From the NCBI GenBank assembly GCA_038046345.1, contig JBBSWJ010000005.1:36083-100082 (forward strand): a DNA stretch of 64,000 nucleotides, in the 5' to 3' direction. Of this stretch, positions 2,711 through 32,661 are shown one piece after another. Within the stretch, counting starts at the first letter, position 1. Every line of letters begins with the position of its first letter. A program made the translations under genes and the position numbers. The stretch comes from Nanobdellota archaeon. Its GTDB lineage: Archaea; Nanobdellota; Nanobdellia; SCGC-AAA011-G17; JACPNG01. The notes under the pieces were generated by a model that ran no database searches, was not told where the DNA came from, and worked only from the letters and a program-made list of their open reading frames with translations.

Positions 2711-3353
2711 AATTATTTTTCCTTTTTTAAATTTTTGAATTCGTGTTTCCATAGTATAAGTTAAATTAGATTTTTATATAAAGTTTGCTAGGCACCAACT
2801 CAAATTGAATATAACTTAGGCGATTAAACAAATATTTATCTGCTTTATAGCATAATATTGCAAAAAAAGCAGTTACGCAAAGTTTTCAACTATTATAACC
2901 CGAATTTTTAATGAAAATTTTTTAAAAACTCTACATGTAATAATTTAAAACTAACTCTAAAAATAAATCAATCTAATAAAAAAAGTGATATCATGTATAT
3001 TGTGTGTAAAATGGTCTCGAGCTATTGGAAAATGCAGGCTTAATTTCTCGTTGCCTTGAAACTTACACCCCACTCCCATCAAACAGATCTTCTATCTGTG
3101 CTCTCCTTCTCTTTTCAAGGTGGGTTTCGTCCTTAGATGCTTTCAGGACTTATCCCACAAGGCGTAGCTGCCCGGCCTGCCTTGTCAGACAACCGGTACA
3201 CCAGAGGCCTCGAATCCTCGTTCCTCTCGTACTAAAGGATCCTTCCCCTCAGAAGATAAACAAATCCAGTAGATATCATACAAACTGTCTCACAACGTTC
3301 TTAACCCAGCTCACGATCCCTTTTAATAAGTGAACACCTTCACCCTTGGCCGC

Positions 3354-3406
3354 AAGCAGTACGTGGAAACTGTTAATTTCGACATACCATGCTCTTTTCC
3401 GCGCAT
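3354..3406 (-). other. 53-nt BHB intron in 23S rRNA helix 91 (after about A2534)
   Basis: Central helix GCAG/CUGC, bulges AA|A and UU|G, intron stem UGCGCGGAAA/UUUCCACGUA; removal restores H91. Confidence 0.88.
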
Positions 3407-3419
3407 TTCTGCACGACCA

Positions 3420-3451
3420 CTCTACGATACAAGAATCTAATCTTTGTATCC
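3420..3451 (-). other. 32-nt BHB intron in 23S rRNA (after about C2521)
   Basis: Central helix CUAU/GUAG, bulges CC|G and AG|U, intron stem GAUACAA/UUGUAUC. Confidence 0.9.
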
Positions 3452-3495
3452 GGATAGGAAGAGCCGACATCGAGGTAGCAAGCAGCGCCGTCGAT

Positions 3496-3521
3496 AAACT
3501 CGGAATCAATTTATTGATCCT
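3496..3521 (-). other. 26-nt BHB intron in 23S rRNA helix 89 (about 2477)
   Basis: Central helix GCUC/GAGU, bulges AA|A and UU|A, intron stem GGAUCAAU/AUUGAUUCC. Confidence 0.85.
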
Positions 3522-6141
3522 TTGAGCTCTTAGGCGCTACAACTCAATTATGCCCGAGATAGCTTTTCTGTCATGTCTAGCCCCCATCAATGAGGACATA
3601 GAAGTTCGCTAGGCCATACTTTCGTACCTGAATCCCGTATTGTTTGGAATCCAGTCAAGCCAGCTTTTGCCCTTGCACTCCACAGAGAATTTCTAAATCT
3701 CTTGAGCTGACCTTTGGGCCCTACTGATATCCTTTCAGCAGGGTCCCGCCCCAGGCAAACTATCCGCCAGTAGTTGTCTTTCATTACTGAAGTAAGTAAT
3801 ATAGAATACAGAGGGTAGTATCTCACTTTTGCCTAAACGTACACTGGCGTGCACGCATCAACAGCTCCTACCTATTCTTAACACCATACTCCATACCACA
3901 GCTACAAGCTATAGTAAAGTTCTACGGGGTCTTCGCTTCCCACTGGAATTCTCTGGCCTTTGCACCAGAATAGTGTGTTCGGGAGGTTCTACGTAAAGAC
4001 AGTGGATACCTCGTTACGCCATTCATGCAAGTCGTCAATCAAACGACAAGGTATTACGCTACCTTAAGAGAATTATAGTTATTCCCGCCGTTTACACGCT
4101 CTTAGCCCCCTTGAAAAGGAGTTTAAAGTACATGCACTGGGCAGACGTCACCTCCTATACAAACCATTACTGGCTAGCAGGAAGTTTCGTTTTTGTTAAA
4201 CAGTCGGGCATCCTTAGTTATTGAATCCTGTACTCGCAACTAAAAGCTACAAGCGCAGGAACCCCTTATGCCGAAGTCACAGGGCCAATATTGCCGATTT
4301 CCTTTACGTAAATTACCCCTCTCATACCTTAGGCTACTAACCCAGGGCACCTGTGCTGGTTCTGGATACGGTTATTTATGATCCTTCCATATTGTTTTTT
4401 CACGGGCTCAAGGCATCTACCCAATCAACATACATTGACTATTCTCAGCTTTTCTCAGGTTCTCATCATGACAATTCTCCCCTGACATATGCTAATTAAC
4501 AACCATGTCTATGATTGTGGGTATAGCCCAAAGCAGCAACAATAAGGCTTTCGTCGCCGAATGTACATAAATAGTACTGGAATATTAACCAGTTTGCCTC
4601 TTCCCGCACGTCAATTTATGAGTGCAGTTAGGTCCGACTAACTCTTAGCTGAACTGCAGTGCTAAGAAAACCTTGCCCTTTCGGTATTAGAGAGTCTCAC
4701 TCTATATAGGTCCTACTACCACCGGGATTCTTATTCGTACACGGTCCATTTACTTTCACAAGTATACTTCCATCCATGCACGACACCTATCTACCACCTT
4801 GCTTTACAGCAAGTCTGAAGTATCGGTCGTCAGTTTAGCCCCGTTAATTTTCAGGGCATAATACCTTGACGGGTGAGCTATTACGCTTTCTTTAGAGGAT
4901 GGCTGCTTCTAAGCCAACCTCCCCGCTGTCTCTGGTATTACACACCATTCACCCTTTCACACTTAACTGACAGTTAGGGACCTTAACTTCAGGCTGGGAT
5001 GTTCCCCTTTTGGGACACACGCTTACCGCGCGCCCCTGCTTCCCGCCTTCTACGACGCATTGACATTTGGAGTTGAACAAGAGTGAGAGGAATTTCTTCC
5101 CTTAACATTCTAATCCGTAGCTCTACAACCAATGCTATCTCGAGCGAGACTATTCTGCGGCATATTTCGATAGGAACAGGCTATTAGCAAACTCGATTGG
5201 CTTTTCACCCCTAATCCCAAATCATAAGAGCACATGCACGTAGCACCTCTTCAGGCCTCCACCTCGTATCACCAAGGCTTCACCTTGCTCAGGATTAGAT
5301 CGTCTGCTTTCCGGTCAGACCCCCATGACTTAAGGCGCTTTCACACCTCGCTCCTCGCAAGCTGCGAGCATTTGCTTTCGCTCAGCATTCGTACTAAAAG
5401 TACTTACGCTCGCCATGAAGATCAACTCCCCGGCCCGTTATTCAAAACGTACGGTGCAACTCATGCTGCACCATTCTATAACCGTAAGGTTTCAGGAACT
5501 TTTCACACCCTATCAGAGGTACTTTTCAATGTTCCATCACTGTACTATTTGCTATCGGACTTAAAACATATTTAGCCTTAGAAGTTGATGCCTCCTAAAT
5601 TCCTGCTCAATATCCAATGAACAGTACTATGGATACTTGTAAATCTTTCACGATTATCCTACGGGGCTATCACCCTGTGTCGCATACCATTCCAGATAAC
5701 TTTAGATAAACATGTTAAGATGAAAAACAAGTCCAAACACCACATGTTGCTTCTTTTTCAAGAAGTAATTCGGTTTAGGCTATACGGATTTCGCTCGCTG
5801 TTACTCACCGCATCTCAATTGATTTCTTTTCCTGCGGGTACTAAGACGCTTCAGTTCCCCGCGTTATACATCCTCTCGGATTTAATAGGAAGTCCTATTC
5901 GGGAATCATTGGTTCGTAGGCTGCATGCGCCTCGCCAATGCATTTCGTAGCTTGCCACGCCCTTCATCTTTGTTTTTAAGCCGAATCATCCACCTTACGG
6001 CGTAATGACCTATAATTACACACAATACCTATACACGATATCATTAAATGAATATTTCATCTGTCCTAAGACTATGATATCCTTCACCCACAACAATTCA
6101 GTTTGTGAGTTGCACTATTTCATTAAAAAATGAATATGATA

Positions 6142-6249
6142 TGGACCCGTCGGGAAAATCGACGATCCAAGATGTCTAATGCAAATCGTTTTCGAACCCG
6201 AGGCCCCTACCTTGCAAGGGTAATGCTCTACCAGCTGAGCTACGGGCCC
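6142..6249 (-). tRNA. tRNA-Ala(TGC) in the 16S-23S spacer, with a 35-nt intron at 59/60 (6156-6190)
   Basis: GGGCCCG/CGGGUCC acceptor stem, A73, UUACC-CUUGCAA-GGUAG anticodon arm; mature length 73 nt after removal. Confidence 0.95.
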
Positions 6250-7042
6250 AAACAATTGGATTGACTGTACGAGATTAATTTCAGTGATTAGAATAGTAAA
6301 AAAAATAGGAGGTGATCCACCTGCAGGTTCCCCTACAGGTACCTTGTGACAACTTACCCCACCTTACTGAATCTAGGTTCGAATACACCATAAAGGTATA
6401 TGCTCACCTAAATCCTGCTCGGTTGGATTGATGGGCGGTGTGTGCAAGGCACGTTGACGTATTCACCGGACCCTGATGAGATCCGATTACTAGGAATTCT
6501 GGCTTCATGAGGGTGAATTGCAACCCTCAATCCGAACTGAGATAGGGTTTAGAGGATTGACTTCTCCTTTCGGAGTTGTAGCCCATTGTCCCTACCATTA
6601 TAACGCGCGTGTAGCCCAGAAGATTCGAGCCATACTGACCTGTCATTGCCTACACCTTCCTCCCACTTACGCGGGCAGTCTCTATAGTGTGCACAATCAT
6701 CCCGGAGGACTTGTTAGCAACTGTAGATGTAGATCTTGTTCGTTAACTGACTTAACAGTACATTTTACAACACGAACTTACGACGGCCATGCAACATCTC
6801 TCGGCTTGTTAGGTACGCCCTTCAGACGGACCTTCATCCTGCCATCGCCTCTGGTGAGGTTCTCCGCGTGGAATTGAATTAAACCGCACGTTCCACTCCT
6901 TGTAGCGCGCCCCCGCCAATTCTTTTAAGTTTCAGTCTTGCGACCGTACTACCCAGGCGGCGGATTTAACACCTTCGCTACAGCACTGCACGATCACTTA
7001 GAACATGCAATACTTAATCCGCAGAGTTTACGGCTAGGACTA

Positions 7043-7073
7043 TTCCCGGTGATATATTATTTATCACATCACT
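7043..7073 (-). other. 31-nt BHB intron in 16S rRNA (after about G800)
   Basis: Central helix CCCG/CGGG, bulges AG|A and AA|U, intron stem GUGAU/AUCAC. Confidence 0.88.
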
Positions 7074-7080
7074 CTCGGGT

Positions 7081-7112
7081 ATTTAGCAAATATTAGATAA
7101 CTAAATATTTGT
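7081..7112 (-). other. 32-nt BHB intron in 16S rRNA (after about U793)
   Basis: Central helix UUAG/CUAA, bulges AU|A and AU|A, intron stem CAAAUAUU/AAUAUUUG. Confidence 0.9.
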
Positions 7113-7365
7113 ATCTAATCCGGTTTGCTCCCCTAGCTTTCATTCCTCACCGTCAGATCCGTTCTAGACACGTGCCTTCGCCATTGGTCGTCTTCCAAGG
7201 ATTATCACATTTAACCGCTCCCCAAGGAATACGCATGTCTTCTCCCGGTCTCTAACTACAGAGTGACCCTTGCACGCTGTCATATTAATGATGACAATTT
7301 CACAAAGGACTATTGTAGTCGGCTACGAATACTTTAGGCCCAATAATCGTGATCGCCACTTGTGG

Positions 7366-7404
<39 letters not shown>

Positions 7405-8149
7405 CCACTTATTCGCCAAGCTATTTACACTTGGCAAAAGCCTACCCGGAGGTAAGCACTTAGGTTTCCCTTGTCACGCTTTCGCGCATTGCAAAGAATC
7501 CTTGCCTGCTGCACTCCTTAGAGCTAGGGCCCTTATCTCAGTGCCCTTCTCGGGGCTAAGACTCTCATCTCCCCTACTGATCTATGCCTTGGTGGGCCAT
7601 TACCTCACCAACAAGCTAATCAGCCGCAGTCCTATCCTAAGGCGTTTCCTTTCATGAAAGACACATTCCAGTTATCTTTCAATATCCAGGTTTACTCTCA
7701 ATTTCTCGAGACTATCCTGAACCTTAGGGCAAGTTAACTACGTGTTACTGAGCCTTTTGCCGGTGCTTCCGAAGAAGCCCCTTGACTTGCATGGCTTACT
7801 GAAACCTAATAGCAGCGATCTCCCGCAAGATCAACGGGAATTATTTTGGTCGCATAAAATTGGAAATTTTTGTAATACTTTACTACTCATAACCATTGCT
7901 GCTTTATCTCGTACATCATACTTAATACTTCTGATTAAGTATTCACGTATTATATCACTAAAGTGATATTTTAAGAAGATTAAAAACTATGCTCAATCTT
8001 CATTAAGTGAAACAAGTGTTGGCATCTAGCTTATAAATATTTCTGTTCATGTGCTATAGCATGATAAACGAAAAATTAGTTTGGGCCTGACTTTCAATTT
8101 CGTATAACATACGAAGTCAGGTAAAAGATATTCGTATCCAAAACTGCTT

Positions 8150-32026: not shown

Positions 32027-32601
32027 GAGTAGTAATAGCTGGTGGGCCATATTGTGGTAAAACAACAGTAATAAATGAATTAAGCACACAGGGCTTTAGG
32101 ACAATAAACGAAGCAACAACGGAGATTATTAAAAAGGAACAAGAAGCAGGTAATAACGAACCATGGTTAGAAAGAGAAAAATTTCAGAAAAAAATCATGG
32201 ATCTTCAAATTCAACAGTTTAATTCAGCAAAAAATAATGTAATTACTTTTTATGATCGGGGTTTAGTTGATGGATTAGCATACTATCATTTAGATGGCAT
32301 TGACCCACCAAAAGAACTAACAGAACATGCCTCAAAAAAAAGGTATAATCTTGTTTTCATTCCGGATCTTATTGAAGGATTCAAACCTGACAAAACTCGT
32401 GGTGAATCACTTGAAGAACGTAAGCTAGTTCATGAGCTTATCAGAAAATGTTATTCTGATCATGGTTATAATGTAATTAATATACCAAGCATAAGCGTTT
32501 CTGAACGTGTATTGTTTATTAAAAAGAAGATTAGCGAGCATAAACTACTTTTAAAAGATAATATACGCCGAGAGCAGGATTTGAACCTGCATATCCGTTA
32601 G
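32011..32601 (+). CDS. AAA_28 / NadR-like P-loop kinase-ATPase
   Basis: GGPYCGKTT, FYDRGLVDGLAY, RYNLVF; 3' end overlaps tRNA-Ser antisense. Confidence 0.85.
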   Translation: MDNQIRVVIAGGPYCGKTTVINELSTQGFRTINEATTEIIKKEQEAGNNEPWLEREKFQKKIMDLQIQQFNSAKNNVITFYDRGLVDGLAYYHLDGIDPPKELTEHASKKRYNLVFIPDLIEGFKPDKTRGESLEERKLVHELIRKCYSDHGYNVINIPSISVSERVLFIKKKISEHKLLLKDNIRREQDLNLHIR

Positions 32602-32661
32602 GAAACAAGCTTACTGGTATAATTTCCAGGCTTGCGCAATACCAAGTTATGCGATCTCGGC
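32566..32661 (-). tRNA. tRNA-Ser(GGA) with a 12-nt canonical 37/38 intron (32612-32623)
   Basis: GCCGAGA/UCUCGGC, G73, long variable arm, CAAGC/GCUUG stem; splice helix CUGG/CCAG with AA|A and UA|A bulges. Confidence 0.92.

Follow-up and report, generated by a model that had tools for sequence, protein, structure and literature searches.

Two probable BHB mini-introns separated by a 7-nt exon in the 790 loop of an archaeal 16S rRNA gene

The 16S rRNA gene described here is interrupted twice within the 790 loop of helix 24. We conclude, with a probability of roughly 0.8, that the two inserts are independent archaeal bulge-helix-bulge (BHB) mini-introns within a single 16S gene, located at 793/794 and 800/801. 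They are referred to below as intron 793 and intron 800. All 16S positions are in E. coli numbering, and the intron boundaries were set by comparison with relatives alone. The micro-exon between the two inserts, ACCCGAG, is 7 nt long and corresponds to E. coli 794-800.

The stretch of DNA analysed (the window) is 64 kb in length (64,000 nucleotides), and its minus strand carries a complete archaeal rRNA operon, consisting of 16S (6307-7841), a spacer tRNA(Ala) and 23S (3005-6017), as identified by Rfam. The 16S gene matches the full length of Rfam SSU_rRNA_archaea (RF01959) with a score of 1342 bits, and is present as a single copy in the host genome (one match in genome G000, 97% complete). 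The genome is of DPANN size, 0.82 Mb, and is a metagenome-type assembly in 35 contigs. The features are as follows, ordered from 5' to 3' on the RNA strand.

6307 to 7841, minus strand: 16S rRNA gene, host of both introns (Rfam RF01959); spliced length matching that of relatives
7120 to 7122, minus strand: C784-G786, 5' strand of the intron 793 outer helix (3 bp) and of the native helix 24 stem; 784/798 covaries
7115 to 7118, minus strand: UUAG (788-791), exon strand of the intron 793 central helix, pairing with CUAA at 7083-7086
7113, minus strand: U793, end of the 5' exon as read on the RNA strand
7081 to 7112, minus strand: intron 793 (intron 1), 32 nt, between U793 and A794; absent from relatives, in BHB register, at a site common to 35 introns
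7087 to 7111, minus strand: intron 793 inner helix, 8 bp with a 9-nt loop, 7111-7104 pairing with 7094-7087
7083 to 7086, minus strand: CUAA, intron strand of the intron 793 central helix, followed by the 3-nt 3' bulge (7082, 7081 / 7080)
7074 to 7080, minus strand: micro-exon ACCCGAG (794-800), identical to the uninterrupted sequence of relatives
7079 to 7076, minus strand: CCCG within the micro-exon, exon strand of the intron 800 central helix
7078 to 7076, minus strand: C796-G798 within the micro-exon, 3' strand of the intron 793 outer helix and of the native helix 24 stem
7043 to 7073, minus strand: intron 800 (intron 2), 31 nt, between G800 and U801; in BHB register, with the same layout in a Micrarchaeota MAG (L060)
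7072 to 7065 with 7056 to 7049, minus strand: intron 800 inner helix, 8 bp including 2 G-U pairs (predicted fold, BHB enumeration)
7048 to 7045, minus strand: CGGG, intron 800 central-helix strand, pairing with CCCG
7042, minus strand: U801, start of the 3' exon as read on the RNA strand

Deletion of both inserts gives a 790 loop that is exactly the uninterrupted sequence of the closest relatives. A DNA search recovered the 790-loop region in 20 of 40 related genomes. The loop is uninterrupted in 19 of these 20, and seven of the 19 read identically to the host 16S minus both inserts, including L003/G005, L009, L011, L016, L017 and L018. The closest relative is L003/G005, with a 16S identity of 89.3%. 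The host 16S is 1535 nt long with both introns and 1472 nt without them, compared to 1471-1478 nt in relatives. The coordinates and arithmetic of the original prediction, in which removal of 7081-7112 and 7043-7073 restored the 790 loop, are correct. In G029/L002, a relative in another family of the same order, site 793 contains one insert of about 75 nt.

Both inserts have the exact BHB register: the central helix has 4 bp, each splice site lies in a 3-nt bulge, and the inner helix, of 8 bp, begins directly after the 5' bulge. The central helices are entirely Watson-Crick (UUAG/CUAA for intron 793 and CCCG/CGGG for intron 800), and the bulges are AU/A and AU/A for intron 793, and AG/A and AA/U for intron 800. 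In both introns, the splice sites fixed by comparison fall after the second bulge base, with the bulges on opposite strands. By sequence alone the boundary of intron 793 can slide by up to 2 nt because of an AC repeat, and the BHB register settles it at 793/794; the boundary of intron 800 is unique at 800/801. Register and relatives agree on two separate BHB introns with a 7-nt exon between them, as had been predicted.

The register was compared with composition-preserving shuffles, in which the boundaries were kept fixed and a shuffle was counted when it had a 4-bp central helix together with 8 or more bp of inner helix. The fraction reaching it was 5e-5 for intron 793 and 0/200,000 for intron 800. 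An exhaustive enumeration of BHB motifs over 7000-7160 gave 15 weak candidates, and an inner helix longer than 5 bp (8 bp) was found only in these two introns. A chance origin of the BHB register of both inserts is excluded. Models of catalytic introns (group I/II) gave no match, and the Rfam gathering scans show rRNA alone across the site; at 31-32 nt, the inserts are in any case far too short to be self-splicing introns of group I or II.

The outer helices are less regular. The same enumeration over 7000-7160 found no contiguous outer pair directly after the 3' bulge in either intron: A787 is opposite C795 in intron 793, and A794 is opposite A802 in intron 800. The outer helix of intron 793 consists of 3 bp beyond the A787/C795 mismatch, and that of intron 800 has at most three weak pairs, or is a helix across a 4x2 loop. 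The 3' splice sites of both introns are thus in relaxed contexts, and the motifs are relaxed relative to the strict hBHBh' form.

Two of the introns carry a tandem copy of the 5' strand of their inner helix. These are intron 800 of the host (GUGAU twice, 7072-7061, minus strand) and intron 793 of the Micrarchaeota MAG (UGGCUCU twice), and the duplicates give two alternative registers in each.

On the basis of the motif, we propose the following mechanism. Four intron bases, located 3-6 nt before the 3' end, would pair with the exon bases 3-6 nt before the 5' splice site. This central pairing would put both splice sites in 3-nt bulges flanking a 4-bp helix. EndA would then cut at the bulges and RtcB would join the exons, the product being the canonical 790 loop. 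The roles of EndA and RtcB are proposed from the form of the motif, the comparisons with other genomes and the presence of both enzymes. The host genome encodes one EndA of 180 residues, with PF01974 (106.9 bits) and PF02778, on contig C32 (L151:1246-1788, plus strand), and one RtcB (PF01139, 565 bits). The strict alpha4 EndA of M. jannaschii can be aligned to it from end to end without an insert, and a search of the host genome for a second EndA subunit or EndA-like gene found none at E values up to 10. According to PMC5829648, non-canonical motifs are cut only by (alpha-beta)2 and epsilon2 EndA. Acceptance of the relaxed 3' contexts at both sites by an alpha4-type EndA is not expected. A strict-looking single-alpha EndA coexists in this genome with relaxed rRNA motifs and with a T-loop tRNA intron (described below).

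The micro-exon is so short that the two motifs overlap within it. The original prediction was that CCCG is used by both motifs, and that the two BHBs are mutually exclusive. The sharing applies to C796-G798: these bases pair with C784-G786 in the outer helix of intron 793, and they are also needed in the central helix of intron 800. The exclusion is partial: the full intron 793 motif excludes the intron 800 core, but the two cores use different bases and are compatible, the conflict being confined to 3 bp. These 3 bp are the native helix 24 stem, C784-G786 with C796-G798, which doubles as the outer helix of intron 793. In local folds of a 138-nt precursor, calculated at 37 C and ignoring r-proteins, co-transcriptional folding and the true growth temperature, the minimum free energy (MFE) is -31.5 kcal/mol, compared to -29.5 kcal/mol when both cores are constrained to form and -24.8 kcal/mol for the full intron 793 motif. 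Both cores together are therefore about 2.0 kcal/mol above the MFE in the host precursor, so that simultaneous cutting is possible. In BHB geometry, the central helix draws its exon strand from the bases 3-6 nt before the 5' splice site, and the outer helix starts 1 nt past the 3' site. Sharing of bases is consequently forced on every pair of BHB introns spaced by 7-8 nt, and the overlap at the micro-exon is a geometric consequence, with no special design.

This overlap suggests an order of removal. Intron 800, whose core dominates the predicted precursor ensemble, would leave first. Its removal would free C796-G798 for the native helix 24 stem, the stem would complete the motif of intron 793, and intron 793 would then be removed. 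The predicted pair probabilities agree with this path in the host. In the precursor, the core of intron 800 has a pair probability of about 0.99, both in the host and in the Micrarchaeota MAG, and the motif of intron 793 has at most 0.03. After removal of intron 800 from the host RNA, the inner, outer and central helices of intron 793 have values of 0.95, 0.70 and 0.3-0.4, respectively. The 784-786 outer stem correspondingly goes from 0.00 in the precursor to 0.70 without intron 800 and 0.83 in the mature RNA. The low value for the intron 793 motif in the host precursor is partly due to the ability of this intron to pair with the upstream exon. In the Micrarchaeota MAG, the motif of intron 793 is still disfavoured after intron 800 has been removed, which means that the thermodynamic relay is not clean in the second twin case. 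Ordered splicing with intron 800 first is on these models the most likely path, with odds close to but slightly short of even, and it is not compelled by structure.

The pairing of intron 793 with its upstream exon is an observation in its own right. The 3' half of the intron (7087-7098) is antisense to the exon (7112-7128), and can form 8 bp at 787-794 and another 6 bp at AGCAAA. This duplex, with an energy of -10.6 kcal/mol (z = -2.5, which is marginal), dominates the predicted precursor fold. It was considered as a feature of the 793-intron family and rejected, since it is present only in the host, in L272 and in the L280/L283/L290 group.

A somewhat less probable reading is that both introns are real and no order is obligatory, with EndA cutting the two cores independently or at once, and the pre-ribosome and the enzymes holding the 7-nt exon until RtcB seals it. 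The small cost of forming both cores in the host, only 2.0 kcal/mol above the MFE, and the limitation of the conflict to the 3-bp outer helix are in keeping with this. Intron 793 is also transcribed before intron 800, and could fold and be cut before the strand of intron 800 exists. Against this, once all four cuts have been made, only 3 bp with C784-G786, or 4 bp with the excised intron 800, would keep the 7-mer in place. In both twin cases the intron 800 core is also strongly preferred to the intron 793 motif in the predicted ensemble, and an alpha4-like EndA is expected to need complete motifs. There are precedents for order among tRNAs. In Cyanidioschyzon merolae, ordered BHB processing that follows motif stability has been shown (PMC3728597), and in nested archaeal tRNA introns, as cited at second hand in the same paper, the last motif forms only once the others have been removed. 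The multi-intron and nested-intron pre-tRNAs of Thermoproteales and the tRNAs of C. merolae resemble the host 16S in having several BHB motifs in one small RNA (PMC3728597). In these systems the order of removal is set by which motif forms or is most stable, whereas the order in the host is only predicted; furthermore, the substrates are tRNAs, some with nested introns, rather than an rRNA with adjacent introns.

The distribution of the two sites was surveyed by pattern scans of about 186,000 species genomes (one genome per species) and of a metagenome collection. The scans covered twin inserts of 16-46 nt each, an 800 insert alone of 12-42 nt, and a 793 insert alone of 16-46 nt. Beyond the host, the species genomes contain one true case of the twin layout, in the Micrarchaeota MAG contig JBBIMI010000012.1 (L060). 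Its introns are 38 and 36 nt long, and its micro-exon and both central helices are those of the host. Its inner helices are unrelated in sequence to those of the host but are still complementary, with a compensatory difference at site 800. Two further candidates for twins, L054 and L150, were rejected as single long 793 introns with an internal ACCCNNG by chance.

An 800 mini-intron alone (12-42 nt) was not found in the species genomes. When the metagenomes were scanned for any 800 mini-intron, 28 contigs matched and none was genuine, and two looser contig scans gave 2 and 0 genuine 16S cases among the matches listed, the rest being chance. Among 400 high-quality genomes sampled from the host phylum, the 800 mini-intron occurs only in the host genome; among 30 relatives of the Micrarchaeota genome, the 793 intron occurs only in that genome itself. 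An 800 mini-intron, within the range surveyed (up to 46 nt), is rare, and is so far seen only beside a 793 intron, in two cases.

Site 793 is very different. A 793 intron alone (16-46 nt) is present in 28 of the species genomes, labelled as Asgard, Aenigm-, Micr-, Nano-, Woese-, Pace- and Parvarchaeota, Methanosarcinales and Nitrososphaerota. In all, 35 distinct introns occupy the site across many archaeal phyla, comprising Asgard, DPANN, and MAGs labelled Methanosarcinales or Nitrososphaerota. The central helix is paired at all four positions in 35/35 introns. Over the first six inner-helix pairs, 185/210 cells are paired in register, compared to 83-89/210 when the strands are slid by one, with 4-6 pair types at each position. 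The outer pair 784/798 also covaries (GC, CG, AT, TA) across the 35 intron-bearing genes. Apart from the host, 33 archaeal genomes or contigs were found to have 793 mini-introns, among them Hermodarchaeum (L269), Borrarchaeum (L279), Woesearchaeota (L294) and Aenigmatarchaeota (L283). These share with intron 793 of the host the insertion point, a central helix of the UUAG/CUAA type and the layout of the bulges. They differ in being 20-77 nt long, in having unrelated inner helices and, in all but the Micrarchaeota MAG, in lacking intron 800. Site 793 is thus well supported as a widely used BHB site with strong covariation.

Many soil and sediment metagenome contigs (L297-L324, e.g. L298 and L299) have an insert that ends just before UAGAUACCC, at about 788/789. 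These inserts would mark another place, besides 793 and 800, at which introns interrupt the 790 loop.

Other readings of the two inserts fare poorly. It is very unlikely that they are retained as expansion segments of the mature 16S, or that they fragment it. Insertions in rRNA are common in small-genome lineages, but these inserts break the loop of helix 24, which is among the best conserved and most functionally exposed regions of 16S; both have exact BHB geometry and covariation, and the host encodes EndA and RtcB. Less probable still is a single insertion of about 62-64 nt, whether an intron or an expansion segment, within which ACCCGAG would be a chance look-alike. Although cmscan aligns the region as one 62-nt insert plus two extra bases, exhaustive enumeration finds no BHB connecting the outer ends of such an insert, and its removal would leave a product that has 2 nt more than that of any relative and is not identical in sequence to that of the closest one. 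The single-intron reading was rejected on these two grounds. In addition, the 793-only introns of 33 other genomes stop exactly before ACCC, and the Micrarchaeota MAG repeats the two-intron layout with unrelated intron sequences. The least probable reading is an assembly artefact or dead gene copy, for which the metagenome-type assembly in 35 contigs might speak. Against it, this is the sole 16S copy, the operon to which it belongs (16S-tRNA(Ala)-23S) is intact and lies on a long contig, and outside the inserts the gene has its full length and is conserved. Structured inserts with the same layout also occur in the independently assembled Micrarchaeota MAG.

Returning to the reading of two mini-introns, both cases of an 800 mini-intron have a 793 intron as neighbour, the two DPANN lineages and their intron sequences being unrelated, and no 800 mini-intron was found alone in the roughly 186,000 species genomes or in the metagenome collection. 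This raises the idea that intron 800 is a dependent satellite of intron 793. The pair might then act as a built-in relay, in which intron 800 keeps C795-G798 out of helix 24 and its removal, by allowing the native stem to form, licenses removal of intron 793. We regard this as improbable; if it were true, completion of the 790 loop would be a late, ordered step in the assembly of the small subunit. It was also considered whether intron 793 supplies the outer helix of intron 800, since in both twin cases U801-U804 are able to pair with the 3' end of intron 793. This candidate was rejected, and does not explain the co-occurrence of the two introns, because the exon gives an equivalent helix once intron 793 is gone.

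The published catalogue of 16S introns (Jay & Inskeep 2015; PMC4496867) lists 13 loci: 374, 548, 722, 781, 803, 901, 908, 919, 978, 1093, 1205, 1213 and 1391. It had been predicted that the present sites are not among the common positions in Thermoproteota. This is correct in that 793 and 800 are absent from these 13 loci, the nearest being 781 and 803, but the host is not a member of the Thermoproteota, and 793 is common in other archaeal phyla. A search of the literature for 793 or 800 introns in DPANN archaea found no paper.

A close parallel is in Pyrobaculum oguniense. As related at second hand in PMC4496867 (citing Nakayama et al. 2003), Pog.S1205, a short hairpin, and Pog.S1213, which encodes I-PogI, are 8 nt apart and are co-converted by I-PogI. 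There too, a single 16S gene has two BHB introns with a micro-exon (8 nt) between them, one partner is an ORF-less hairpin of less than 50 nt, and the rarer partner is found with its neighbour. The differences are the sites (1205/1213 rather than 793/800), the phylum, and the presence of a homing endonuclease in one intron of P. oguniense, whereas no ORF is possible in the introns of the host (31-32 nt) or of the Micrarchaeota MAG (38/36 nt). By analogy, the 793/800 pair may have undergone co-conversion in the past, which is only a guess.

Loci 901 (hairpin only) and 908 of Thermoproteales and Desulfurococcales 16S are 7 nt apart (PMC4496867). They resemble 793/800 in having the identical spacing, which would force the same sharing of micro-exon bases, and a position in a conserved primer site; they differ in 16S position and in lineage. 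In two relatives of the host, L004 (G009) and L010 (G010), the conserved 16S sequence CUGAAACUUAAA is broken after CUGAA(A), near E. coli 906, which suggests that introns near the catalogued loci 901/908 occur in the order of the host too.

Thermoproteales 16S genes also contain short (less than 50 nt) hairpin BHB introns, termed HP (PMC4496867), which are of the same size class and architecture as the host introns. In Desulfurococcales, locus 803 interrupts the primers Ab789F and 806R, and its three sequences are partial, remnant or uncharacterised (PMC4496867). A distance of 3 nt separates this locus from site 800, the primers interrupted are the same, and the two could be one and the same site. 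What is new here is thus the sites 793/800 and the host group; the type of element, its size class, the tight pairing and the idea of a structure-dependent order are known.

Several other RNAs in the window appear to be interrupted. The T-loop of the spacer tRNA-Ala(UGC) at 6142-6249 (minus strand) is enlarged by an insert of about 35 nt, and Rfam covers just 57 nt of this tRNA. ARAGORN found no tRNA in the 64-kb window and Rfam found two, both interrupted, the second being at 32566-32661 (96 nt). In domain V of 23S (minus strand), near the peptidyl-transferase region, 3349-3449 has 101 nt compared to 16 in the model, and about 3495-3522 has 28 nt compared to 2. These extra stretches are consistent with further mini-introns.

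There are practical consequences. The two introns split the site of primers 806R, 785F and 805R (787-806) into three pieces. Standard V4 and V3-V4 amplicon surveys will fail to detect the host and the roughly 35 lineages found to carry a 793 intron. Annotation by covariance models mis-draws the twin-intron site as a single insert. The region would also make a compact synthetic substrate, about 140 nt long, for asking whether an alpha4-like EndA handles relaxed, competing motifs, and in which order. More generally, the finding adds position 793 as a widely used intron site outside the 2015 catalogue, and extends closely spaced pairs of BHB introns from the hyperthermophilic Thermoproteales to small-genome archaea of the DPANN type.
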